Below, piece by piece: positions 6,578-64,000 of a stretch of 64,000 nt of DNA. Below the pieces are notes generated by a model that searched no databases, was not told the DNA's origin, and saw only the letters and a program-made list of their open reading frames with translations. The stretch's first letter is position 1. Every line of letters starts with the position of its first letter. The position numbers and the translations under genes are program-made. Source of the DNA: an uncultured Tissierellaceae bacterium. GTDB taxonomy: Bacteria > Bacillota > Clostridia > Tissierellales > Tissierellaceae. The DNA is taken from the NCBI GenBank assembly GCA_964527205.1, contig CAZGQG010000004.1, positions 7,023-71,022 on the forward strand, written 5' to 3'.

Positions 6578-6778
6578 AAAAAAACTTACCCCCAATATTT
6601 AAGGATAAGTCTAAAGACTTCAATCCTCCCTCCGAGATAATATATAGGCAGATATCCTGACTTATGGCTTTTCCTAATTCCAACACCTTCCCAGTTTCCC
6701 AGTGGCCTTTGTTGGTTTCGTACCATTTACAGTAGCGGGGGCTGTAGTGGCTTCTAACCACTTTCCCTTTTAATCCCT
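6578..6778 (-). promoter_or_regulatory. Cobalamin (B12) riboswitch with terminator expression platform
   Basis: The minus strand reads AAAGGGAAAGTGGTTAGAAGCCACTACAGCCCCCGCTACTGTAA...GGCCACTGGGAAACTGGGAAGGTG...AAGTCAGGATATCTGCC (B12 box), then the hairpin acttatcc/gggtaagt plus T7 at 6578-6612. Confidence 0.85.
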
Positions 6779-6854
6779 ATATTTTCATATAGGAAACCTA
6801 TAATCCTATTCAATTACTCCATAATAATATCATATCCAGAGAATATTTTCAATA

Positions 6855-7497: not shown

Positions 7498-7521
7498 GGT
7501 TATTTGATAAATGAATATGAT

Positions 7522-7675
7522 TTGTTAGGTAGAGGCTCCTATACAAACACAGGCTACTGCCCAGAAACGTCCAGAGACGCCAACGGGTATAACAGGAATT
7601 AACCGAAATAAGGTGTTCTTAAGGTAGCTAACAGAAATGTTTACGTTGTATAGTGCTAAAACTCCACGAAAAGAT
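7522..7675 (+). promoter_or_regulatory. M-box (ykoK leader) Mg2+ riboswitch
   Basis: GTTAGGTAGAGGCTCCTATACAAACACAGGCTACTGCCCAGAAACGTCCAGAGACGCCAACGGGTATAACAG...GTGCTAAAACTCCACGAAAAG matches the conserved M-box core. It lies upstream of a Mg2+ P-type ATPase. Confidence 0.85.
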
Positions 7676-7716
7676 CATAATGTGTAAGATTTTTTATACT
7701 TTATGTGGATATTTAG

Positions 7717-12015: not shown

Positions 12016-12600
12016 TTAGTATGTTTCACAAAATACTTCAAAATGTCCTTGTGGATGATCACAAGCTGGACATACATCTGGTGCTGACTTACCCTTATGT
12101 ATGTAACCACAGTTGTTACATTTCCATTCTACTACTTCATCTTTTTGGAATACTTCATTGTTTTCAATATTTGCCAATAGCTTTTTGTATCTTAGTTCAT
12201 GGCGCTCTTCTGCTTCTGCTATTTCTCTCCATACATATGCTATCTCTGGAAATCCTTCTTCATCAGCTACATCTGCAAATTTAGGATAAAGTACTTCCCA
12301 TTCTAATCTTTCACCCTCTGCTGCTGCTTTTAGGTTTGACTTAGTATCTGCCAATGCTACAGGATATTCTGCATTAATTTCAACAAATTCTCCTTCTAAA
12401 GTCTCACTTAGGAATTTCATAAATCTCTTTGCATGCTCTTTTTCATTTTCAGCTGTCTCTAAGAATATGTTTTGCATTTGAACATATCCTTCTTTTTTTG
12501 CCTGGGATGCATAGTAAGTATACCTAGTTCTTGCTTGGGATTCCCCAGCAAATGATATCATTAGGTTTTCTGCTGTTTTTGTTCCTTTTAAAGATTTCAT
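12016..12600 (-). CDS. rbr: Rubrerythrin
   Basis: Ferritin-like diiron motifs (E..ARTRY, EKEHAKRF, EGERLEW..., EERHELRY) plus a C-terminal rubredoxin CNNCG...CPACD. Start moved to the ATG at 12598-12600, which has GGAGG upstream; the track ORF begins 23 codons earlier. Confidence 0.9.
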   Translation of the reverse strand: MKSLKGTKTAENLMISFAGESQARTRYTYYASQAKKEGYVQMQNIFLETAENEKEHAKRFMKFLSETLEGEFVEINAEYPVALADTKSNLKAAAEGERLEWEVLYPKFADVADEEGFPEIAYVWREIAEAEERHELRYKKLLANIENNEVFQKDEVVEWKCNNCGYIHKGKSAPDVCPACDHPQGHFEVFCETY

Positions 12601-12764
12601 TCTATTACCTCCATTTTTTTGATATATTACTCTACTTTTATTATAGACCATCTTTAAGATTTTTCCCAATTTTCAGATTTTAACTAAGTATAATTGGCAT
12701 TTTCGGCTTATAGTCTTTTAGCTGACTATAAGCCTCTTTAATCTCTTAAATGATCATTAAAGCC

Positions 12765-30527: not shown

Positions 30528-31871
30528 ATGAAAGTTCTTATTATAGGTGGAGTGGCTGGAGGCATGAGTGTTGCCTTTAAGGCCAAGCGTGAAAATCCAC
30601 AGTTAGACATTACTGTTTTAGAACAAGAAGATTATATATCCTTTGGTGCCTGAGGTTTGCCCTATTATATCGGTGATATATTTGATGATATTGATAAAAG
30701 CTTATTCATTAGGAATCTAGAGGACGCAAAGGAACAGGGAATTAATTTACTGCAAAGACATAGGGTTACGGAGGTTGACTTTGATAAAAAGAAAGCTTTA
30801 GCCCGAGATTTAGATAAGGATGAGGAAAAGACCTTTGAATATGATCAATTAGTCATAGCAACTGGAGCCACTGCCTTCATTCCGGATATTCCTGGTATAG
30901 ATTCTGACAATGTCTATTCTATTACCAAACCCTATATAGTAAAGGATCTTAAGAAAAACCTGGATAAATACACCAATATTGCTGTAGTTGGCGGAGGATT
31001 TATAGGTGTTGAAGTAGCGGAGCAGCTGGCTAAGTACAAGGGTTTAAATATAAATCTCTATCATTCCAGAGATCAGCTTTTAAACAAGGTCTATGACAAG
31101 AAGGCTGGAGAAAGAGCAGCTAAGGAGCTGGAAGATCTTGGTATTAATCTTCATTTTTCTGAAAGACTAGAGGATGTGGTCTACCAGGATGGAAAGGTCA
31201 AGGAAATCCTTACTAGCAACAGAAAAGACCCTGTGGACGCTCTTATTTTAGCTATAGGATTTAATCCTAATACCTCTATCTTTGATGATGAGAGACTGGA
31301 AAAATTAAAAAATGGAGCTATTGTAATTGATAAGTACGGCAGAACTTCAATTCCAGATGTATGGAGTGTTGGAGACTGCGCTACTGTTCCTCATAAGTTT
31401 TTAGATAATCCTTACATTCCTCTTGCAACCAGTGCCAATAAGATAGGTAGGCAGATAGGAATAAACCTATCTAGGGAAGAGAAGGATTTATTTGGAGCCT
31501 ATGAATCCATAGGGAGTAGTTCAGTTAAGATAGGAAGTTTAGAATTTGCTATTACTGGTCTTACAGAGGAGCAAGCTGAGGAGCTTGGCTATGATTATGG
31601 TATAGCAGAGTCTCAAATCTCCAATAAACCTCCTTATATGAACAATTCTAGTAAGATTGATTTTAGGCTTATTTATGAAAAGGAGACTTTTAAACTTCTA
31701 GGAGCTAGGGTTTTTGGAAAAAGAGATGCTGTCCTTAGACTTCTTCCTTTCACTACAGCCATACATGCAGGCATTACAACTAAGGATCTAGCATATTATG
31801 ACTATGCTTATTCACCACCCTTTGCCCTAACATGGGAAGCTGTAAATACTGCTTCATCTATTGCAAAATAA
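30528..31871 (+). CDS. CoA-disulfide reductase / NADH oxidase-peroxidase family flavoprotein with in-frame TGA (candidate selenocysteine) at the catalytic Cys position
   Basis: ATG 30528 gives MKVLIIGGVAGGMSVAFKAKRENPQLDITVLEQEDYISFGA-TGA(30651-30653)-GLPYYIGD... This is in frame with track ORF 30657..31871. The GxGxxG FAD motif lies upstream of the TGA, and the SF(G/A)xC(G/A)LPY active-site Cys aligns with the TGA. Confidence 0.7.
30651..30685 (+). promoter_or_regulatory. Candidate bacterial SECIS: UGA plus downstream hairpin
   Basis: Perfect 6-bp stem tatatc/gatata (30666-30680) with apical loop GGU, starting 12 nt after the UGA. Confidence 0.45.
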
Positions 31872-53122: not shown

Positions 53123-53731
53123 TTACTTTGCTTTCTTATAAAGTTCTTCTGCTTTCTTCCAGTCTACTACATTCCACCATTTGTCTATATATTCTGCTCT
53201 CTTGTTTTTATATTTTAGATAATAAGCATGCTCCCATACGTCTATACCTAATACTACTTTCTTGCCATCTGAGATTGGACTATCCTGATTTGGAGTAGAA
53301 ACTATTTCCAATTTGTCATTGTCAAGTACTAACCAAGCCCATCCACTACCAAATTGTCCAGTTGCCGCTTTTTTGAAATCTTCTTTAAACTTATCAAAAC
53401 CTCCAAGATCTTTATCAATCTTTTCAGCTAATTCTCCTTCAGGTTTTCCACCACCATTTGGTGACATCATTTCCCAGAATAATAAGTGATTATAATATCC
53501 ACCACCGTTATTTCTTACAGCTGTTCTTATTGATTCTGGTAACTTATCTAGAGATTTCAATATTTCTTCAATTTCCATATTTTGGTACTCATCATGTCCT
53601 TCTAAAGCTTTATTTAAATTATCTGTATATCCTTGATGATGTTTAGAATGATGAGTTTCCATAGTTTCCTTATCAATATGGGGTTCTAAAGCATCATATG
53701 CATAATTTAATTCTGGTAATTTAAAAGTCAT
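53123..53731 (-). CDS. sodA: Fe/Mn superoxide dismutase
   Basis: 202 aa: [28 protein letters not shown]..., [15 protein letters not shown]. Confidence 0.9.
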
Positions 53732-53874: not shown

Positions 53875-55611
53875 CTAAAGAAAGTTAAATCCATGTCCCA
53901 CAAGTTTTTTTGTGTATTCATGCCTAGGATCTGCAAAAATCTTTGATGAACTACCACTTTCTACAATCTCACCCTTAGACATTACATAGACCCTATCTGC
54001 AATCTTTCTAGCAACAGCCAGGTCATGGGTTATGTATAGCATGCTAAAACCCTTTTCATTTTGCAGTTTCTTTAGGAGCCTTAGAATATTGGCTTGGGTA
54101 GAGGGGTCTAGCATAGAGCTTATCTCATCAGCTATTAGGATTTTTGGTCTTACAATTAAACTTCTAGCTAGGGAAAGCCTTTGTCTCTGACCTCCGCTAA
54201 GAGTATAAGACTTTCTATTTAAAAAAATATCATCCTGGGGAAGTTGAAGCTCCCCTAGTATCCCTTTAATCTCATCTTCTAAGGATTCATAGGATGCTTT
54301 TTTTATTATCCTTAAGGGCTCAGCTATAACCTCCCTAATGCTTAGTTTTTCATTTATTGCAGAAAAAGGATCTTGAAAGACCATTTGTATGCCCTCTTCC
54401 ATACTTGTAAAATTATTTCCCTTAAGAAGCTTGTCTTCAAAACTTATCTCTCCCCTATCAGCCCTATCTATACCTGATAGGATGCTGGCAAGAGTAGTTT
54501 TACCGGAGCCTGATTCACCAATCAAGGCCACGACTTCTCCACTTTCTATATGAATATTGCAATCAATGCAAGCTTTAACAGATCTATTCTTAGATTTGTA
54601 GATCTTTGATATGTTTTTTCCTTTTAATATGGTAACTATACCCCCTCGGTGGCAGGCTACTTGTCTGTCCTTACCTATGTATTCCAGTTTAGGTTTTTCC
54701 CTGTCACATATGTCTATACTTTGAGTACATCTATTTTTAAAGGGACAGCCTTTATTTTCACAGTCTACACTTCCATCTGGAATCCCCCACATGTCTCCAA
54801 AAATATTAACTGAGGGAGAAGAATTTAATAGGCCCTTGCTATAGCTGTGCCTAGGGGACCTAAGTAAATCTTCTGTTCCACCCTTTTCCACTAGGGAGCC
54901 TGCGTACATAACACAGACCTTAGATGTAAGTTTTAGAACTGTATCTAATTCGTGGGATATAACTAGGAGGGCAAAGTTGTTTTCCTTATATAAGCTGGAT
55001 AGGAGTTCTATTATCTCAGCCTTTGAAACCATATCTAAGGCTGATGTAGGCTCATCTACAATGAGAAGTTCCGGCTCACAGGCCAAGGCCATGGCAATTA
55101 GGACTCTCTGTCTCATACCACCAGAGAGCTCATGGGGATAAGAGTAAAGCATGCCTAAGTCTAAATTCACCTTTGTAAGTAGTTCCTCAATTCTTTTCTC
55201 CCTTGCTTTTCCAGGCAAGCCTGTGTGCCTTACCAAGACCTCATCTATCTGCTCATGAATAGTTAGGAGAGGATTTAATATATCCAGGCTATTTTGAAAA
55301 ACTATAGCCATTTTTTTCCAGCGCAATCCTTCTAATTCTCTTTTTGTTAATTTATTAATATCCTTGTCCTTAAAATATATATTTCCACTTATATGGGCTG
55401 GACTTTTAATAAGACCCATTATAGCCATTGCCATAGAGGTTTTCCCGCTTCCTGACTCCCCTATTATGCCTAAGCTTTCTCCCTTATTTAAGGATAAACT
55501 TAGATTATTAAGGGCGGAGATCCTCTGATCTTCTAACTTGTATTCCAGTGAAAGATTTTCTATTTTTAATAATGAATTATCCATACAAGACACCCCTTTA
55601 TAGTTTTTCAT
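53875..55611 (-). CDS. Fused double ATPase of a peptide/nickel-type (Opp/Dpp/Nik) ABC transporter
   Basis: 578 aa with two Walker A sites (GESGSGKTS, GESGSGKTT) and two signatures (LSGGMRQRV, LSGGQRQRL). The true start may be the internal ATG at 55584. Confidence 0.8.
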   Translation of the reverse strand: MKNYKGVSCMDNSLLKIENLSLEYKLEDQRISALNNLSLSLNKGESLGIIGESGSGKTSMAMAIMGLIKSPAHISGNIYFKDKDINKLTKRELEGLRWKKMAIVFQNSLDILNPLLTIHEQIDEVLVRHTGLPGKAREKRIEELLTKVNLDLGMLYSYPHELSGGMRQRVLIAMALACEPELLIVDEPTSALDMVSKAEIIELLSSLYKENNFALLVISHELDTVLKLTSKVCVMYAGSLVEKGGTEDLLRSPRHSYSKGLLNSSPSVNIFGDMWGIPDGSVDCENKGCPFKNRCTQSIDICDREKPKLEYIGKDRQVACHRGGIVTILKGKNISKIYKSKNRSVKACIDCNIHIESGEVVALIGESGSGKTTLASILSGIDRADRGEISFEDKLLKGNNFTSMEEGIQMVFQDPFSAINEKLSIREVIAEPLRIIKKASYESLEDEIKGILGELQLPQDDIFLNRKSYTLSGGQRQRLSLARSLIVRPKILIADEISSMLDPSTQANILRLLKKLQNEKGFSMLYITHDLAVARKIADRVYVMSKGEIVESGSSSKIFADPRHEYTKKLVGHGFNFL

Positions 55612-56434
55612 TGAAAATTCTTTCTAAATCTCTACTTATGGCAGAAATAGCAAGAATTAGTAACATAGTAACAAGCAATGGGGCCATTACCCACCATTTC
55701 CAGTAGTCTGTAAAATATATGCCCTTAAAATTAATTCCATGATTTAAAATCAATCCCCAACTTTTAGATGTGGGGTCTCCAAGACCTAGAAAAGATAGGC
55801 CTGCCTCTGCTACAATGGCCTTGCTGGTTATCCTTATAATGGTAATAGATAAGATAGGCATAATTTCTGGCAAGAAATGAGTCCTTAATAAATGAAAAAA
55901 ACCAGCCCCATAACTTTCAGCCATTTTAATATAGGACTCTTCCTTAATAGATATGATCTTAGACCTTATTATTCTAGCAGGAGAAGTCCAAGAAAAAAAG
56001 GCAAGAACCAAAACTATATTTCTAATGCTTGGATCAAAAAAAGCACCTAGCAATATCATCATAGGTAAATCAGGTAGGGCAATCATTATATCTACTAGCC
56101 TCATTATAAGCTTATCAATCAGGCCCCCATGGTAGCCAGCTAGGATACCTAGCAGCGCTCCACCTAGTCCTGCTAATAGGGAAGTAGAAAATCCAATAAT
56201 CACACTTATCCTAGCTCCATAAAAGATTTGAGCTAGGAGGTCAATACCCAGATCATCTGTACCTAGGAGATGTTCTCTACTAGGAGCCTCCAAAGCATTC
56301 CCTGAAGGTACTTTATGGGAATGTGTTGATAGGTAGGGTCCAAATACCCCTATGAATATAATTAAAAATACAAATATAATTCCTAGCCTAGCCCCTAGGG
56401 ATAATCTTTTGAAAGCCTCAATATATTTATTCAT
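55598..56434 (-). CDS. Opp/Dpp/Nik-type ABC permease (DppC/NikC-like)
   Basis: 278 aa BPD-type permease; the N-terminal region matches the OppC pattern. Confidence 0.8.
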   Translation of the reverse strand: MNKYIEAFKRLSLGARLGIIFVFLIIFIGVFGPYLSTHSHKVPSGNALEAPSREHLLGTDDLGIDLLAQIFYGARISVIIGFSTSLLAGLGGALLGILAGYHGGLIDKLIMRLVDIMIALPDLPMMILLGAFFDPSIRNIVLVLAFFSWTSPARIIRSKIISIKEESYIKMAESYGAGFFHLLRTHFLPEIMPILSITIIRITSKAIVAEAGLSFLGLGDPTSKSWGLILNHGINFKGIYFTDYWKWWVMAPLLVTMLLILAISAISRDLERIFNEKL

Positions 56435-57406
56435 TTATCTCACCCTTGGGTCAATTTTTTTATAAAATAAATCTGCCAGTAAATTCATAGTTAAAACTAA
56501 AAAAGCAACAAATAAGAATATACCCTGAATCAATACATAATCCCGAACATTAACAGCCTCTCTCATAAGCCTTCCAAGACCAGGATAATTAAATACATTT
56601 TCTACTAAAATTGCCCCTCCCAATACCCCTCCTAGACTCATAAAGACCCTAGTAATAATAGGGAGGAGAGAGTTTTTTAGCCCATGTTTAAATATAATCC
56701 TTTTAGAACTTAGGCCCTTGGCCAGGGCTGTAGTCATATAGTCCTTTGACATTACACTTATCATACTATTTCTAGCCAATAAGTAGAAAGCTCCCACTTG
56801 AGTCAGTACAAGAGCTAGGCTAGGTAGAAGAGCATGGCGAAGAATATCTAAAAACTTATAAAAGCCATTTTTATAGTCCCCAAAGACTGTCATAGCACCA
56901 GAGAGAGGAAAAAAATCAAAGGGTGCTGCTAAAGTAAATAGCAAGAGTATGGCTATTAGAAAAGAAGGTATCTCAGACAATAAGATCATTATAGGATACA
57001 GGCTTCTGTCAATAATGGAATCCCTATACCAGGCAGACAAGCTACCCAGTATGGATCCTAGGACTGCACTGATAAGCAAGGATCCAAGACTTATAAGCAG
57101 GGTCCATCTAGCCCTTTGTAAAACTAGACTTCTTACACTGGCATTGTAATAAATACTATATCCTAGATCTCCCTTAGCCAATTTCATAAGATAATCCTTG
57201 TATTGTTCCCCTAGGCCCTTATCCATTCCATAGTACTTCTTATACTCTATTATTTGCTCTTCACTATAGTTTTGATGGACCCCTCCCTCTTCAGCTGATA
57301 AAAAAGTAAAAGGATCCCCAGGCATTAGCCTGGGAAGAAAAAAATTTAAAGTTATTATTATATAAAATATTATTAAATATTCTAAGAGTTTCTTCGAAAA
57401 ACTCAT
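56435..57406 (-). CDS. Opp/Dpp/Nik-type ABC permease (DppB/NikB-like)
   Basis: 323 aa with the typical start ...LPRLMPGDP and an EAA loop region (TALAKGLSSKRIIFKHGLKNSLLPI). Confidence 0.8.
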   Translation of the reverse strand: MSFSKKLLEYLIIFYIIITLNFFLPRLMPGDPFTFLSAEEGGVHQNYSEEQIIEYKKYYGMDKGLGEQYKDYLMKLAKGDLGYSIYYNASVRSLVLQRARWTLLISLGSLLISAVLGSILGSLSAWYRDSIIDRSLYPIMILLSEIPSFLIAILLLFTLAAPFDFFPLSGAMTVFGDYKNGFYKFLDILRHALLPSLALVLTQVGAFYLLARNSMISVMSKDYMTTALAKGLSSKRIIFKHGLKNSLLPIITRVFMSLGGVLGGAILVENVFNYPGLGRLMREAVNVRDYVLIQGIFLFVAFLVLTMNLLADLFYKKIDPRVR

Positions 57407-57414
57407 ATGACCAC

Positions 57415-58982
57415 CTATTCCATTTCTACATATGATATTTTGTTGTGTGTTACATTATGATGATCAAAGACATGAGTCCAACCATCATATTTTTCAGGCC
57501 TGTAAAGAGTATAGCCACTGGTATTGTAAAGAGTAAGCATAGGCATTTCTTCAGCTATTATCTCTTGTAGCTTAAATATAAGCTCTTTTCTCTCCTCTGG
57601 ATTTACAGCTGACAACTGCTCCCTGGATACTTGGTCAATTTCAGGATTCACATAGCCTGGTATTTGATTGAATTCAGAGTTGTATAGTTCCCTAAGTGTA
57701 TCAGGATCATTACCCCAACCTCCATTACCAGTTAGTGCCAGTTCATAATCAGAATTTTTTATAGCCCCATCCCTGGTTTTTGTATCTAGACTGGTTATAT
57801 TAAGCTTGATACCTATTTTTTCAAAGTTAATCTTTATAAGTTCTCCAATTCTAAGTTCTTCATTGGAATTTCCTATTAGTAAGGAAAATTCATATTCTTC
57901 TCCTCCTAGGAGCTCCCTTGCTTTTTCCAAATCAAAGTCATATTCCTTTACCCCTTCATTATAGAAGGAATGCTCTAAGGGCAAGTATCCTGGACTAGCT
58001 ATTTTACCAGCTCCCCTTCCTACCTTTTCTATTAATTCTTCCCTATCAATGCCATAGGCCATGGCCTGTCTAAGCTCCTTATCCTTAAGCTCTTCTCTAT
58101 TTTCCATATTAAAAAGGATCTTATAACCCCAAAATCCAGGATTTTCTATTAGCTTATAGCTGGGGTATCCTCATATCTAGACAATAAATCAGGATTAATA
58201 TCAGTAATATCTATATCTCCATTCTCAAAGGCCAGAATAGAATCACTTACAGGAATAAATCGAATTTTATCTGCTGCAGGCCTATAGCCCCAGTAATCTT
58301 CAAATACCTCAAATTCATAGGCTCCCTGCTCTTTCTTATAATCTACTAATCTATAGGGACCAGAGCCTATAACCGCTTCTGGACCATCAAATTTTATAGG
58401 ATCATCTACATCTTCCCAGATATGCTTAGGTATAATAGGTATCTTGCCAAAGCGTCCTAAAAGAGTTGCATCAGGAGCTTCTACCTGGATATGAATAGTA
58501 TGATCATCTATTAAGTTTATTTCTTCTATGTAATCCCTTTGGCTTCTGGCTAGGTCGTCCCTAACAGGTGGATGCTCCTTATAATAATCAAAGGAAAATC
58601 TTACATCCTCTGCTGTCATTTCTTCTCCATCCTGCCATTTTACCCCTTCTCTTATTTTAAAGATATAGGATTTTCCTTCTTCATCTATCTCCCAGCTTTC
58701 TGCTAAAAAAGGGATCAAGCCTTCTTCCCCTCTTTCTAAAAGGCTATCAAATATCAGTCTCATCTTATAATAACCAGGACCTCTAGTATAGTGAACAAAG
58801 GGACTAAGGTAACCCCAATCTCCACCTTGTAAATTTAATATAAGAGAATCTTCTACTATTTTATTGTCTTCCAAAACCAGATCCTTATCCTTTTTTAAAC
58901 TATCCCCTTCTTCACCCCTACAAGAAATTAAAAATATAACACTTATAAATATCATGCTAAGCTTTACCAATCTTTTTTTCAT
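57415..58982 (-). pseudogene. Family-5 (peptide/nickel) substrate-binding lipoprotein, split by a 1-nt frameshift
   Basis: ORFs 58149..58982 (lipobox LISC) and 57415..58107 are collinear halves of one SBP. Adding one G to the G4 run at 58162-58165 gives a continuous ...SRYEDTPSYKLIENPGFWGYKILFNMENRE... (522 aa). Confidence 0.6.
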
Positions 58983-59584: not shown

Positions 59585-59745
59585 GAAGGTTCTACTATAT
59601 ATCTACTCTAGGCAGGTCTCCTGACTTATGATATTTTCTATCAACACCTTCCCAGATAAAATCCAGTGGTTTCTGTTGACCCTAAATCACTTACAGTAGC
59701 GGGGGCTGTATAGGACTTTAACCTATTTCCCTTTTAATAAAACCT
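59585..59745 (-). promoter_or_regulatory. Cobalamin (B12) riboswitch, second copy
   Basis: The minus strand reads AAAAGGGAAATAGGTTAAAGTCCTATACAGCCCCCGCTACTGTAAG...AACCACTGGATTTTATCTGGGAAGGTG...AAGTCAGGAGACCTGCC, which is a near-consensus B12 box. Confidence 0.85.
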
Positions 59746-59878
59746 AGAATAGTCTTATTTAGTTATCATATGTATAATATCATATTGTTATATTTAATAC
59801 AATATAATCTATCTCTTATTTCTTTCAGGACAAGAATCCTAGCCTATGCTATAATGGAAGAAAATAGGAGGTGCTTTA

Positions 59879-60961
59879 ATGGAGAAAAAGATATTCTCTG
59901 GAAAAAGTATAATAAAAGGAATTTTCTACATAATAGGATTTCTTGTCTTATTACTAGTGCTTCTGGTCTTATATCTCACTATTACAGAATACAAGCCAGA
60001 TGAGATTACCAGCCTGGTCATTGACTATGCAGATATAAATGAAGTCCCAAGAGAAACTAGCTTTAAGGCAGTAAGCTTTAATCTAGGCTACGGAGCCCTA
60101 GGTGAGGAAGAAGATTTCTTTATGGATGGAGGAAAGAAGGTCTTTCCAGATAGCATAGAAGTGGTAGAAAAAAATCTGGAGGGAATTGCCCATGTCCTAA
60201 AGGATATTGATGCGGATTTCCATTTGCTTCAGGAAGTTGATAAGGACTCTAAGAGAAGCTTTTCCATAGATCAACAAGAATACTTAGAAGATCAGGTCCT
60301 AGGAAAACCAAGCTTTTATGCAGAAAACTATAAGGTTAAATTTGTTCCCATACCCTTCCCACCAATGGGAAAGGTTGATTCAGGCCTAGTAACCAGTGCT
60401 AGGTACAATATATTAGAGGCGGATAGGATAAGTTTATTTGTTCCCTTTAAATGGCCTGTTAGGATAGCCAATCTCAAACGTAGCTTGCTGGTGACCAAAA
60501 TGCCAGTGGAGGATACTGAAAAGGACCTAGTCCTTGTAAACCTTCATCTAGAGGCCTATGACGACTCAGGTGGCCGAGAAGAGCAGACCAGGGAACTCTT
60601 GGAGCTAATGGAGGAGGAAGTGGCCAAGGGAAATTATGTAATAGCTGGAGGAGACTTTAACCAGTCCTTCTTCCCCTTAGAAGATCTACCCTACGAAGCC
60701 ACAGAAGACCAGTGGGAGCCAGGACTCTTAGACCTGGATTTATTTTCAGATGATTTCCATGTTTTAAGAGATGAAAATATGACTCCAACCTGCCGCTCCA
60801 ACCACATAGCCCACACTGAATACCAGGGCAGAAAGTATTATTACTATATTGATGGCTTTATTGTATCGGATAATATTAATGTAGAAAGCTTAGAGGTGTA
60901 TGATCAAGACTTCCAGTTCTCAGATCATAATCCAGTAGTTCTGAATTTCTCATTGAAATAG
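59879..60961 (+). CDS. Membrane-anchored endonuclease/exonuclease/phosphatase (EEP) family protein
   Basis: 360 aa with an N-terminal TM helix and EEP motifs (LLQEVD, VNLHLEAYD, GGDFN, SDHNPV). AGGAGG RBS. Confidence 0.75.
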   Translation: MEKKIFSGKSIIKGIFYIIGFLVLLLVLLVLYLTITEYKPDEITSLVIDYADINEVPRETSFKAVSFNLGYGALGEEEDFFMDGGKKVFPDSIEVVEKNLEGIAHVLKDIDADFHLLQEVDKDSKRSFSIDQQEYLEDQVLGKPSFYAENYKVKFVPIPFPPMGKVDSGLVTSARYNILEADRISLFVPFKWPVRIANLKRSLLVTKMPVEDTEKDLVLVNLHLEAYDDSGGREEQTRELLELMEEEVAKGNYVIAGGDFNQSFFPLEDLPYEATEDQWEPGLLDLDLFSDDFHVLRDENMTPTCRSNHIAHTEYQGRKYYYYIDGFIVSDNINVESLEVYDQDFQFSDHNPVVLNFSLK

Positions 60962-61002
60962 GATTTATTGGTCCTAGAGTAAAATAATCTTAAAAATAGA
61001 AA

Positions 61003-61038
61003 AAGAGCTAGAATTTGCCTAGGCATTTTCTAGCTCTT
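61003..61038. terminator. Bidirectional terminator between convergent EEP and heliorhodopsin genes
   Basis: aagagctagaa...ttctagctctt with inner tgcc/ggca pairing and flanking A/T-tracts. Confidence 0.75.
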
Positions 61039-61074
61039 TATTCTTTGATTTAAAAACAGTCCATCAAGATTAAT

Positions 61075-61854
61075 TTATGGCTGCATGGCTCCAAACAGAA
61101 CCAACCAAGCCAGGGCTGATTTAGCCACTAGGCTTAGAATAATATAAACTCTTTCACCATAAAGATAATCCTTCCATTTCCCAACTTCCTTGTATTGTAG
61201 GATCATATTGATTGGGAAGGTGTTAAATGCTATAAAGTAAACAACAACTATAGCCCATACAAACCAAGGTACCTCTCCAAAATTACCTGTTGCAAACATG
61301 TACATTGCAATGGCAATCCAAGGGGCAATCCCTGCTATTGAACCCCATATAAAGGGACCCCAATTAACATCTTCTTTCTTACGCTGAGAATTCAATTGTT
61401 CCATAACTAATCCAAATAAGTTCATTGTAGCATTAACAAAGAAAATAAGGGTTAATGAAGCAATATCATAAATACCAAATAGGGTTGCAATTAGAACAAT
61501 CATAATTGATGAACTAAGAGCATATTCAAACCATCTGAATTTGTTGATACCAAGCCTTAAGTCTGCAAAATATTTGTCGCTCATAATATATACAATACCG
61601 TGGGCTAGGGCAGAAATAAGTAAAAATGAAGCCACCATAATTCCAAAGGGCAATTGGAACAATTCCTTACTTGCAGTAACCAGTCCCTGGACCTGAGGAT
61701 CATACTTCAAGAAATTTTGTGTAATCATAGGCTGGAATTCTGCAATCTTTTGAATTACACTAGTTGCCAGAAATATCATTGCTATACCCTGTATAAGGTG
61801 TAGAGTCCCCATAATCAAGTTAAATCTCTTCAGTTTTTCTAATCTTTCTTCCAT
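61075..61854 (-). CDS. Heliorhodopsin
   Basis: 259 aa with 7 TM helices. Near-identical blocks to my recollection of HeR 48C12: FRWFEYALSSSIMIVLIA (counterion Glu) and GERVYIILSLVAKSALAW (Schiff-base Lys245, codon 61120-61122). The conserved His residues in LHLIQ and LAHGIV are present. Confidence 0.9.
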   Translation of the reverse strand: MEERLEKLKRFNLIMGTLHLIQGIAMIFLATSVIQKIAEFQPMITQNFLKYDPQVQGLVTASKELFQLPFGIMVASFLLISALAHGIVYIMSDKYFADLRLGINKFRWFEYALSSSIMIVLIATLFGIYDIASLTLIFFVNATMNLFGLVMEQLNSQRKKEDVNWGPFIWGSIAGIAPWIAIAMYMFATGNFGEVPWFVWAIVVVYFIAFNTFPINMILQYKEVGKWKDYLYGERVYIILSLVAKSALAWLVLFGAMQP

Positions 61855-61919
61855 AAAATCATCTCCTTACAGGGTCTTTACCCTGATTCAACTTATAATA
61901 TCCTCTTTAGAAAATATAA

Positions 61920-61950
61920 ATAAAAAGAAGAGCTATAATAAAGCTCCTCT
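61920..61950 (-). terminator. Possible terminator after the DsbA-like gene
   Basis: 8-bp stem agaggagc/gctcttct (one G-U pair) followed by TTTTTATTT on the minus strand. Confidence 0.4.
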
Positions 61951-62584
61951 AGAGTTGTTTCTCTTCTTCCATAATTCTGTGAAGCATCTCTTCTATCTTA
62001 TCTAAGGGTTGAGCCCCTCCTATTAAATATTTCCCCTCTACTAAAAGAGCAGGTACACTGGATATTCCGTAGGCTCTGGCTAGATCAAGCTCCCTGTTAA
62101 CTGCTTCTAGTGACTCAGGACTATTAAAGGCCTTCTCCCACTTTTCCAGGTCTATGCCTGTTTGTGAAACAATATCCTTTATAATCTCTGGATTTCCTAT
62201 GTTTTTATTATCCATAAATAATGCCTCTTGCAAAGCATCAAATACCTCCCAAGCCATATCATCCCCAGCAACTTCTTCCCCAGCCTTAACTGCACGTAAA
62301 GGAAGGATTGACATGGGAAATAAAAAGTCCTTTTCTTTCATTCCTTCAATATTAAACCTATTAAGATCATCATTTATATTTGCCTGTTCCCAATGACTTA
62401 AAATCTCCCCCTTTGCCCCTTCCCTACTTCCAAACATCTTGTCAAAGGCTTCTAGCTCTGGAACTAAGGCAAAGGATCTATGGATAATTTCAAGTTCAGG
62501 CATCCTTTCCTTAAGCTTTCTCATCCTATAGGACATAGGAAAGCAAAAGCTACATATTACATCATGAAAAAATTCTATTCTCAT
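61949..62584 (-). CDS. DsbA/FrnE-like thiol:disulfide oxidoreductase
   Basis: 211 aa with an N-terminal CSFC (CxxC) in FFHDVICSFCFP and the C-terminal GISSVPALLVEGKYLIGGAQ. Confidence 0.75.
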   Translation of the reverse strand: MRIEFFHDVICSFCFPMSYRMRKLKERMPELEIIHRSFALVPELEAFDKMFGSREGAKGEILSHWEQANINDDLNRFNIEGMKEKDFLFPMSILPLRAVKAGEEVAGDDMAWEVFDALQEALFMDNKNIGNPEIIKDIVSQTGIDLEKWEKAFNSPESLEAVNRELDLARAYGISSVPALLVEGKYLIGGAQPLDKIEEMLHRIMEEEKQL

Positions 62585-62641: not shown

Positions 62642-63538
62642 TTATTTTCTAGATTTTTCTTTAATTTTTATAAAATCCTTCTTATATAAGAGTAAGATTA
62701 ATATAGTAAAAGTGATTAGACTACTTACCAATACAAAAGATAAATCACGAATTATATGATGAGTGGCTCCTCCCGGACCAAGAATAGCCATATGGGAGAT
62801 AATGTAGGATAAGGCAAAGATCATTATTATCCTAGTTACCTTAGAGATCTTATCTTTCTTCCTAAATATAAGGGATAAAATCCCACTTATAATAAGGATA
62901 ATTATCATAACCATTAAATAATAATTCATAGCAAGTCTTGGAAGTGTAAGGCTATATCCCTCTTGTTCCTCCCCATAAATTATTTTATCTAATTCACTGG
63001 TTTGACTTATAAAAAGAACTCTAACAGGTTTTTCTTCATCAATACTTATTACTGCACTTTTCCCCTCTCCTCTTTCAAATAAACTACTTATATTAGTTTT
63101 CCAAGCCATAATCTCGTATTCCATTCCACCATAATTAATCTGAACTATATCATAATTAGAAACTTCAGGCCTAAACTTGATAAATAATTTACCCTCTGCT
63201 ACTTCTGTAGATTCTATAACTTGCTGGTAGGATAGGGGAATAGGTTTTGTAGCTAGGTTTAGTCCTATAATTAATAATAAACTTATTATCAAAGCAGCCA
63301 TGATGCCTGTATAAATATTCCCTTTTTTTATCTTACTATTTACTTTTTTTAATGGGATAGCTTCTAACTCATTTTCCCTTTTATAGTCTAATTTTGCTGC
63401 CTTTAATTCTTCATATTCCCCTTTACATATAGGGCAATTTTCTATATGATCCTCTACAAGTTTTTCTGTATCCTCACTGGTTAAATCTTCCACCACCAAG
63501 GGAAGTAAATCTTGAATTGTATTACAAGTTAATTTCAT
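62642..63538 (-). CDS. Anti-sigma factor (zf-HC2) with TM segments
   Basis: 298 aa with the N-terminal motif H-x3-C-x2-C (DHIENCPICKGE). It overlaps the upstream sigma gene by 4 nt. Confidence 0.7.
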   Translation of the reverse strand: MKLTCNTIQDLLPLVVEDLTSEDTEKLVEDHIENCPICKGEYEELKAAKLDYKRENELEAIPLKKVNSKIKKGNIYTGIMAALIISLLLIIGLNLATKPIPLSYQQVIESTEVAEGKLFIKFRPEVSNYDIVQINYGGMEYEIMAWKTNISSLFERGEGKSAVISIDEEKPVRVLFISQTSELDKIIYGEEQEGYSLTLPRLAMNYYLMVMIIILIISGILSLIFRKKDKISKVTRIIMIFALSYIISHMAILGPGGATHHIIRDLSFVLVSSLITFTILILLLYKKDFIKIKEKSRK

Positions 63539-64000
63539 AGCTTTCCCTCCAGTTCTCTTTGAATTTTCTTTCTAGCCCTATGATAAATAACACAGGCCCA
63601 GTTATCCGTCTTTCCAAATAGTTTAGCTATTTCTTTAAAACTAAGTTCCCCATAAAATCTTAATCTAAAAATTTCACCATAGGGACCTTCTAGTGAAGAA
63701 TCTATAATGCTATTTATCCTTATAAATTCATCCTTAGAAATAATATCTCTTTCAAGCATATTAATATCTTCTTTTTCTATCAGACTATCCAGATCTTTTC
63801 TAAAATCTACTTTTTTGTTTTTTCTAAGATAAGAAAAATACTCATTTTTTGCAATCTGGCATAGCCATACCCTTAATTTAGTCTCACCTCTATAATCGTC
63901 AATGGCCTTCATAGCCTTTAAAAATGTTTCAGATGTAATATCTTCTGCTATATGCTTATCTCTTGATAAGCTTAATATGTAGTAGTAAATATCCTTAAAA
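63535..64000 (-). CDS. ECF (sigma-70 family) RNA polymerase sigma factor; N-terminus beyond the window
   Basis: The frame stays open to base 64000: ...FKDIYYYILSLSRDKHIAEDITSETFLKAMKAIDDYRGETKLRVWLCQIAKNEYFSYLRKNKK (region 2) and ...LSFKEIAKLFGKTDNWACVIYHRARKKI (region 4). Confidence 0.8.
   Translation of the reverse strand, partial: FKDIYYYILSLSRDKHIAEDITSETFLKAMKAIDDYRGETKLRVWLCQIAKNEYFSYLRKNKKVDFRKDLDSLIEKEDINMLERDIISKDEFIRINSIIDSSLEGPYGEIFRLRFYGELSFKEIAKLFGKTDNWACVIYHRARKKIQRELEGKL

Follow-up and report, generated by a model that had tools for sequence, protein, structure and literature searches.

A canonical heliorhodopsin of the TfHeR clade in a Tissierellaceae-like anaerobe

The stretch of contig CAZGQG010000004.1 that we analyzed (64,000 nucleotides, hereafter the window) carries near one end a gene for a heliorhodopsin (HeR), and this gene and its product are the subject of the present analysis. 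The open reading frame (ORF) encodes a genuine, intact and canonical heliorhodopsin with an inverted seven-helix fold and with K245 in helix G. This identification follows from matches to two curated hidden Markov models, from residue homology, from a structure model, and from the invariance of the catalytic residues across the clade, and it bears out an initial annotation that had named the product a canonical heliorhodopsin from the letters of the sequence. The protein probably acts as a green-light regulatory photoreceptor, which would use scavenged retinal and act on one or more partner proteins.

Identity of the protein and its relatives

The gene and the codons of its key residues lie as follows.

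61075..61854, minus strand: HeR coding sequence (259 amino acids, stop codon TAA at 61075-61077; from the ORF list)
61120..61122, minus strand: codon AAA of K245, the retinal Schiff-base lysine (K241 of 48C12; from the alignment)
61525..61527, minus strand: codon GAA of E110, the Schiff-base counterion (E107 of 48C12; from the alignment)
61600..61602, minus strand: codon CAC of H85 (H80 of 48C12; from the alignment)
61798..61800, minus strand: codon CAC of H19 (H23 of 48C12; from the alignment)

The Pfam family PF18761 matches the window HeR from end to end (profile positions 1-242 of 242; E 2.1e-96, 322 bits against a cutoff of 26.7), as does the NCBIfam equivalog NF038020, "heliorhodopsin HeR" (1-244 of 244; 298 bits against a cutoff of 100); with the latter score above its cutoff, the NCBI pipeline would assign the name automatically. 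A search of the PDB returned TaHeR (E 3.6e-54) and 48C12 (E 1e-50) as the best relatives of solved structure. Residue equivalences were read from a HMMER alignment to the 48C12 chain with its native numbering, in which H19, H85, E110, S114, S241 and K245 correspond to H23, H80, E107, S111, S237 and K241; the lysine and the glutamate thus sit at the homologous positions. The features that the initial annotation had pointed to in this 259-residue product, namely the blocks RWFEYALSSS and SLVAKSALAW, the lysine codon at 61120-61122 and both histidines, are all present.

Kovalev et al. (PMC7049168) listed 17 conserved polar or charged residues of heliorhodopsins, and the window HeR is identical at 16 of them (N12, H19, S81, H85, Y95, N104, R107, W108, E110, Y111, S114, E152, Q220, Y230, E234 and S241). 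The sole mismatch is M217 in place of Q213 of 48C12, and methionine is a frequent variant at this position according to the same paper. There is a single glutamate counterion, E110, with a serine (S241) in place of Asp212 of the type-1 rhodopsins; together with S241, S81 and S114 (S76 and S111 of 48C12) stabilize this counterion. The residues of the Schiff-base cavity (H19, H85, N12, N104, Y95, Y111, E234 and R107) form a complete set, and the E149/Q216/Y226/W105 cluster of 48C12 is found as E152, Q220, Y230 and W108. The key residues, K245, E110, S114 and S241 among them, are invariant in all 79 clade members, and S81 is invariant across an alignment of 30 sequences.

The AlphaFold2 model (pLDDT 84.8, pTM 0.79) has seven helices and a beta-hairpin in the A-B loop (strands 43-52 and 57-67). 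In a Foldseek search the heliorhodopsin structures (TM-score 0.84-0.88) all ranked above every type-1 rhodopsin (at most 0.61), and the model superimposes on TaHeR (6is6) with a TM-score of 0.88 and a root-mean-square deviation of 1.9 A. Lysines and arginines number 15 in the loops on the side of the N-terminus, which is predicted to be cytoplasmic, against 3 on the opposite side. This distribution fits, and the sequence is consistent with, an inverted topology with the N-terminus in the cytoplasm.

The closest characterized relative is TfHeR from Trichococcus flocculiformis DSM 2094, which is 77.6% identical over 259 aligned residues and belongs to the same clade (locus L033). The two proteins share the Schiff-base, counterion and cavity residues and, in addition, the subfamily markers Y206, N145 and M217; both hosts are monoderm Bacillota from sludge-type habitats. 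The B-C loop of TfHeR is longer by an insertion of three residues. TaHeR (Thermoplasmatales archaeon SG8-52-1; PDB 6IS6, 7U55, 7CLJ) is 44% identical and shares with the window HeR a Met where 48C12 has Gln213 and an Asn where it has Ile142; however, it is archaeal, has Thr at the position of 48C12 Asn138, and has a shorter A-B loop (a gap of seven residues in the alignment). 48C12 itself, the founding member of the family, placed in subfamily 1 of Kovalev et al. (PDB 6SU3, 6SU4, 6UH3, 9LJJ), is 43% identical; the window HeR has M217 for Q213, N145 for I142 and Y206 for L202, whereas N138 is retained as N141. Going by this signature and the bacterial host alone, the window HeR would be placed in the all-bacterial subfamily 8 rather than in subfamily 1 (PMC7049168).

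Comparison with its five closest relatives gave dN/dS ratios of 0.03-0.07 at dS values of at least 1.1, which is near saturation, and the synonymous sites are saturated even relative to the 92%-identical homolog. The GC content of the gene (36.3%) is close to that of the window (35.9%), and its GC content at third codon positions lies within the range of the neighboring genes. We therefore rejected a recent horizontal acquisition of the gene, which by these measures is functional, long resident and under strong purifying selection.

Thousands of relatives exist, and the close ones already bear the name "heliorhodopsin HeR". Heliorhodopsins with 73-88% identity to that of the window are found in genomes labeled Thermotogae, Erysipelothrix, Anaerolineaceae, Dehalococcoidia, Fusobacteria, Christensenellaceae, Proteiniclasticum and Trichococcus. 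Seven loci with 77-88% identity (L004, accession OY763325.1, and L005, L008, L009, L012, L013 and L014) carry the labels Thermotogae or Thermotogaceae, Anaerolineaceae, Dehalococcoidia and Fusobacteria. The high identity across phyla could reflect extreme constraint, old transfer between phyla among co-habiting anaerobes, or mislabeled metagenome-assembled genomes (MAGs); the saturation of synonymous sites argues that it does not stem from recent transfer of DNA. The occurrences under Thermotogae and Fusobacteria would be of note given the claim that heliorhodopsins are limited to monoderms; Thermotogae have been counted among the HeR-bearing phyla (Chazan et al., preprint). One Christensenellaceae MAG chromosome (OY762278.1) carries two members of the clade (L030 and L075), about 0.69 Mb apart and 76% and 73% identical to the window HeR. 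The isolate names, and these alone, suggest that many clade members come from MAGs of anaerobic digesters, bioreactors or sludge; a search of the accessible literature on heliorhodopsins in anaerobic digesters found no relevant paper.

The transcription unit

Three genes precede HeR on the same strand and one gene converges with it. In the list below, L001 and L002 denote two further loci of the same organism.

63535-64000, minus strand: extracytoplasmic function (ECF) sigma factor, SigM-like, clipped by the end of the window (complete in L001, 167 amino acids)
62642-63538, minus strand: polytopic membrane anti-sigma factor with an N-terminal zf-HC2 motif (C5, H31-x3-C35-x2-C38)
61949-62584, minus strand: DsbA-like protein without signal peptide, of cytoplasmic type (CxxC motif CSFC), immediately upstream of HeR
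61926..61950, minus strand: terminator-like hairpin and T-run at the end of the DsbA-like gene (terminator scan and fold)
61892..61897, minus strand: probable -10 box of HeR, TATAAG (positional alignment with the 5' regions of relatives)
61870..61885, minus strand: small leader hairpin CAGGGT-AAAG-ACCCTG (in the minimum-free-energy fold)
61863..61868, minus strand: ribosome-binding site AAGGAG, 8 nucleotides 5' of the HeR ATG
61002..61039, both strands: perfect palindrome of 12 bp, AAAGAGCTAGAA / TTCTAGCTCTTT, with arms at 61028-61039 and 61002-61013 and flanking A/T runs
59879-60961, plus strand: membrane-anchored protein of the endonuclease/exonuclease/phosphatase (EEP) family, convergent with HeR

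The DsbA-like gene ends in a terminator-like hairpin with a 9-bp stem that includes four GC pairs and has the tail TTTTATTTAT, which argues against plain read-through into HeR. The six closest HeR genes, those of the window and of its relatives L003-L007, were aligned over their 5' regions. A -10-like box recurs 35-40 nucleotides from the ATG, as TGGTATAAT in L004 and L005, TAGTATAAG in L003 and TATTATAAG in the window, and its fixed distance from the start codon suggests that HeR very probably has its own promoter. A scan with a generic promoter consensus did not report TATAAG in the window, because the final T is missing from the box and no good -35 element accompanies it. The ribosome-binding site reads AAGGAG or AAAGAG in five of the six regions and GATAGG in L007.

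The palindrome downstream folds better than shuffled sequences on both strands (z-scores of -4.18 on the minus and -3.87 on the plus strand) and has T-rich tails. Its position between convergent genes makes it reasonable to read it as a probable bidirectional terminator common to HeR and the EEP-family gene. The initial annotation had described HeR as a monocistronic unit that ends in a bidirectional terminator; the strong folding of the palindrome on both strands agrees with the second part of this description, and the upstream terminator-like hairpin together with the positionally conserved -10 box agrees with the first. Stand-alone genes are also the most common arrangement of helR (275 of 448; Cho et al. 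2024, PMC11109279).

The small hairpin, which the same annotation had placed just 5' of the ribosome-binding site, does exist there. However, an exact-match search found it nowhere but in the window, L001 and L002. It has no conserved counterpart in L003-L007, the five closest relatives, and the leader as a whole folds only marginally better than shuffled sequences (z -2.0). We therefore rejected the hairpin as a regulatory element. If transcription starts about seven nucleotides after the -10 box, then the mRNA would carry the hairpin at its 5' end, where it could have a stabilizing effect. Scans with Rfam models and for tRNAs found nothing at the HeR locus.

Proposed function and its alternatives

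TfHeR binds retinal, absorbs at 542 nm and has a slow photocycle; in its mutants, whose photocycle is like that of the wild type, recovery of the ground state takes about 0.7 s (PMC9769723). It binds a class II cyclobutane pyrimidine dimer (CPD) photolyase through R162 and K227 and raises DNA repair about three-fold, and a K227Q mutant lost photolyase binding (PMC9769723). Counting TfHeR from the start MKEITT puts an E, an R and a K at the three published positions and so validates the numbering: E97 corresponds to D93 of the window HeR, R162 is kept as R158, and K227 is replaced by E223, a reversal of charge. Two other pairs, AbHeR with glutamine synthetase (PMC9529153) and OcHeR with the ABC exporter OmrDE (PMC11109279), likewise present the heliorhodopsin as a light-dependent regulator of a partner, which is bound, as in the model proposed here, through charged cytoplasmic residues. 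These two proteins are actinobacterial and share an operon with their partners, whereas no gene for a glutamine synthetase or a heterodimeric ABC exporter adjoins the window HeR; the ABC system nearby (53875-58982) is an Opp/Nik-type importer controlled by a cobalamin riboswitch and has a frameshifted binding protein.

In the mechanism that we propose, the window HeR would bind all-trans-retinal, absorb green light and cycle slowly, by extension from other heliorhodopsins and in particular from TfHeR, which at 77% identity has its absorption maximum at 542 nm and a photocycle lasting about 1 s. On the same grounds it would move no ions, and with its basic cytoplasmic loops it may act on one or more partner proteins and change how active they are. 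No family of carotenoid or retinal synthesis (SQS_PSY, lycopene cyclase, Blh/BCD or CrtI-type) was found in the approximately 57 window ORFs that were scanned with Pfam, in line with an earlier remark that the window shows no retinal-biosynthesis gene. The last known step of retinal synthesis, catalyzed by the dioxygenase Blh, requires O2. Given both observations, the chromophore would most likely be scavenged, or else made by an unknown route. The blh gene is rare near heliorhodopsins and in genomes whose only rhodopsin is a HeR (Chazan et al., preprint).

Several points weigh against this proposal. The retinal binding, color and photocycle of the window HeR are extrapolated from relatives; no partner was identified, and nothing in the neighborhood is conserved with HeR across 80 related loci. 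One of the two basic residues that are essential for the binding of photolyase by TfHeR is reversed in charge (K227 to E223), which suggests that the best-studied mode of partnering may not apply. The negative result for retinal and carotenoid genes covers 64 kb of the genome only. A 2025 preprint (Kornilov) proposes light harvesting with exogenous carotenoid antennae instead of pure signaling. Finally, the retention of a photoreceptor in what the isolate names suggest are organisms of digesters and bioreactors is unexplained.

An alternative explanation is that the window HeR helps a photolyase in the manner of TfHeR, binding a class II CPD photolyase with its cytoplasmic loops and thereby boosting light-dependent DNA repair. 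This function has an experimental basis in TfHeR (PMC9769723), and the overall identity of the two proteins, the conserved R158 and the conservative replacement of E97 by D93 would fit it. A photolyase gene lies 0.6-2.2 kb upstream of HeR on the same strand in eight of the 80 clade loci. The TfHeR gene is one of these, 0.6 kb downstream of its photolyase gene, and the two have been placed in one operon (Shim et al. 2022, PMC9769723), whereas the HeR of the window is a stand-alone gene, and the 64 kb contain no photolyase. Neither the Pfam-scanned window ORFs nor the called genes of L001 and L002 gave a hit to a photolyase family, and the photolyase-linked loci belong to Trichococcus/Carnobacteriaceae and one member of the Anaerolineaceae, none to the Tissierellales. 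Position 223, acidic in the window HeR, carries a basic residue in 59 of the 79 clade members and an acidic one in just three. The lack of a photolyase in the window and E223 together make a partnership of the TfHeR type doubtful here, and we regard this explanation as unlikely.

A second alternative draws on the genes directly upstream. The order of the genes for the sigma factor, the zf-HC2 anti-sigma factor and the CxxC-containing DsbA-like protein, all on the strand of HeR, resembles that in sigma/anti-sigma systems that respond to thiols or singlet oxygen. The first two genes overlap by four nucleotides and the DsbA-like gene follows 57 nucleotides later, and the scan reported no terminator-like site in between; the set is probably a thiol-stress module that is independent of HeR. 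The likeness makes it attractive to suppose that HeR feeds light into a photo-oxidative or thiol-stress response, working with this ECF sigma, zinc anti-sigma and DsbA-like module. Redox proteins are enriched near heliorhodopsins, for which a role in mitigating light-induced oxidative stress has been proposed (Bulzu 2021, PMC8612252), and three genes of this kind occur in the window.

53123-53731: Fe/Mn superoxide dismutase, 7 kb from HeR
30528-31871, plus strand: gene similar to coenzyme A-disulfide reductase and NADH oxidase (CoADR/Nox-like; NCBIfam match), 29 kb from HeR
12016-12669: rubrerythrin, 48 kb from HeR

The statement in the initial annotation that the window is rich in oxidative-stress genes holds only in part: these genes are present, but 7, 29 and 48 kb separate them from HeR, and they belong to other transcription units.

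Three tests bear on the link between HeR and the adjacent module. ORFs were called in 80 related loci and in the window, compared all against all with BLASTP, and clustered. The DsbA-like cluster is next to HeR only in the window, L001 and L002, that is, in a single organism among 81 HeR loci. In L003, the closest species-representative genome, HeR is preceded by an unrelated non-coding stretch of 485 bp and no DsbA-like gene, and the EEP-family gene is the sole neighbor that is also kept beside HeR (86% identity); the EEP cluster adds only this locus. No gene family occurs within 3 kb of HeR in more than 10 of the 80 loci; the most common are a histidine kinase (10 loci), an unannotated family (9, and restricted to these nine loci), and a response regulator, photolyase and an ABC ATPase (8 each). 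A conserved gene neighborhood was therefore rejected. The ten recurrent groups of helR neighbors described by Cho et al. 2024 (PMC11109279) include neither DsbA nor sigma factors. A likely autoregulatory motif precedes the sigma factor gene in L001 (TGTAAG-N16-CGTC), but neither this motif nor TGTAA-N17/18-CGTC has a match anywhere in the window, including the regions upstream of HeR and of the DsbA-like gene, and the 94-nucleotide HeR leader is devoid of CG dinucleotides. Membership of HeR in an ECF-sigma regulon or operon was rejected in view of the absent motif, the non-conserved adjacency and the terminator-like hairpin that separates HeR, with its own conserved -10 box, from the DsbA-like gene. 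Because the adjacency is not conserved, no family is common to the loci, and the sigma motif is missing, the position of HeR next to this module looks incidental. The light or photo-oxidative-stress sensing role suggested in the initial annotation, an idea already published (PMC8612252), gains no support from a redox and sigma adjacency that is not conserved, and we consider it very unlikely.

We rate slightly lower still a related idea, in which the HeR of this tightly conserved clade (dN/dS about 0.05) would serve obligate anaerobes, for which the O2-dependent Blh route to retinal is closed, as a sentinel for drift into a lit, oxic zone. Without exogenous retinal or carotenoid supplied by phototrophs or aerobes no pigment would form; where it is supplied, light would trigger a defense, which in this organism could run through the neighboring zinc anti-sigma, ECF sigma and DsbA-like module. 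The least probable reading is light harvesting with an exogenous carotenoid antenna, or else a proton channel like the viral V2HeR3: fenestrations in 91% of heliorhodopsins and a proposed use of exogenous xanthophylls in monoderms (Kornilov 2025 preprint) would fit such a reading, as would the polar Y206 that the clade has at the position of 48C12 Leu202, in an otherwise hydrophobic extracellular half, but 48C12 showed no transport (PMC7049168), the closest characterized relative, TfHeR, is a regulator with a slow photocycle, and no energy-coupling context is seen around HeR.

The clade to which the window HeR belongs is well populated and has a characterized protein among its members. The window HeR, for which we prefer the role of a regulatory photoreceptor, is ordinary within it and adds little that is new: there is no new architecture, fusion, conserved partner or unusual active-site residue. 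Heliorhodopsins in strictly anaerobic Firmicutes have been described before (Bulzu 2021, PMC8612252), and the literature already covers the occurrence in strict anaerobes, the absence of blh and the idea of photo-oxidative stress. The main value of the analysis lies in the correct annotation, with the addition that the function of heliorhodopsins is only partly understood, which makes any of them a possible object of study. Of modest value are the extreme conservation of a clade that has, by isolate names, members from digesters and sludge, and whose source of retinal and reason for sensing light are unexplained, and the presence of E223 in place of a basic residue, which suggests that the choice of partner varies within the clade.

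The host and other features of the window

The host is, as the data support, a Tissierellaceae-like, obligately anaerobic, monoderm member of the Bacillota. L003 is an uncultured Tissierellaceae MAG whose HeR is 92% identical to that of the window, and it also has the EEP-family gene, the TetR regulator (83%) and the gene similar to old yellow enzyme/enoate reductase (86%) of the window. The best named relative of the MgtA-type ATPase of the window is from Tissierella sp. (87%), followed by other Bacillota; a taxonomy look-up places the Tissierellaceae in the Bacillota, Tissierellia. The window encodes two subunits of 2-hydroxyacyl-CoA dehydratase and a BcrAD-type activator, and further, besides the rubrerythrin, flavocytochrome-type reductases, Fe-S proteins and Cu_amine_oxidN1 wall proteins; a 2-oxoacid:ferredoxin oxidoreductase is found on the L001 contig. 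It is the relatedness to L003 and Tissierella, together with the anaerobic enzyme set of the window and L001, that points to an anaerobic Firmicute, and the initial annotation had drawn the same conclusion.

The CoADR/Nox-like gene contains an in-frame TGA at 30651-30653 (codon 42), at the position of the redox-active cysteine of the SF(G/A)xC-GLPYY motif. As a consequence of this TGA, the ORF caller set the start at 30657, and the first model position covered by the NCBIfam match is 44. The codon may be either a selenocysteine codon or a nonsense mutation; a selenocysteine insertion sequence was not confirmed, in that the 60 nucleotides 3' of the TGA fold no better than shuffled sequences (z +0.77).

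The SBP_bac_5 gene of the Opp/Nik-type ABC transporter (57415-58982, minus strand) is split into two ORFs of 230 and 277 amino acids by a one-nucleotide deletion relative to the intact gene of 522 amino acids on L002, and represents either a frameshift pseudogene or an assembly error. The transporter possibly imports cobalt or nickel, or a corrinoid. Three riboswitches were found in the window, the first of which belongs to this system.

59594-59762, minus strand: cobalamin riboswitch preceding a TrmO_N-like gene and the Opp/Nik-type ABC transporter
6630-6816, minus strand: cobalamin riboswitch preceding a FecCD/Peripla_BP_2 ABC importer
7514-7681, plus strand: M-box riboswitch preceding the MgtA-type P-type ATPase

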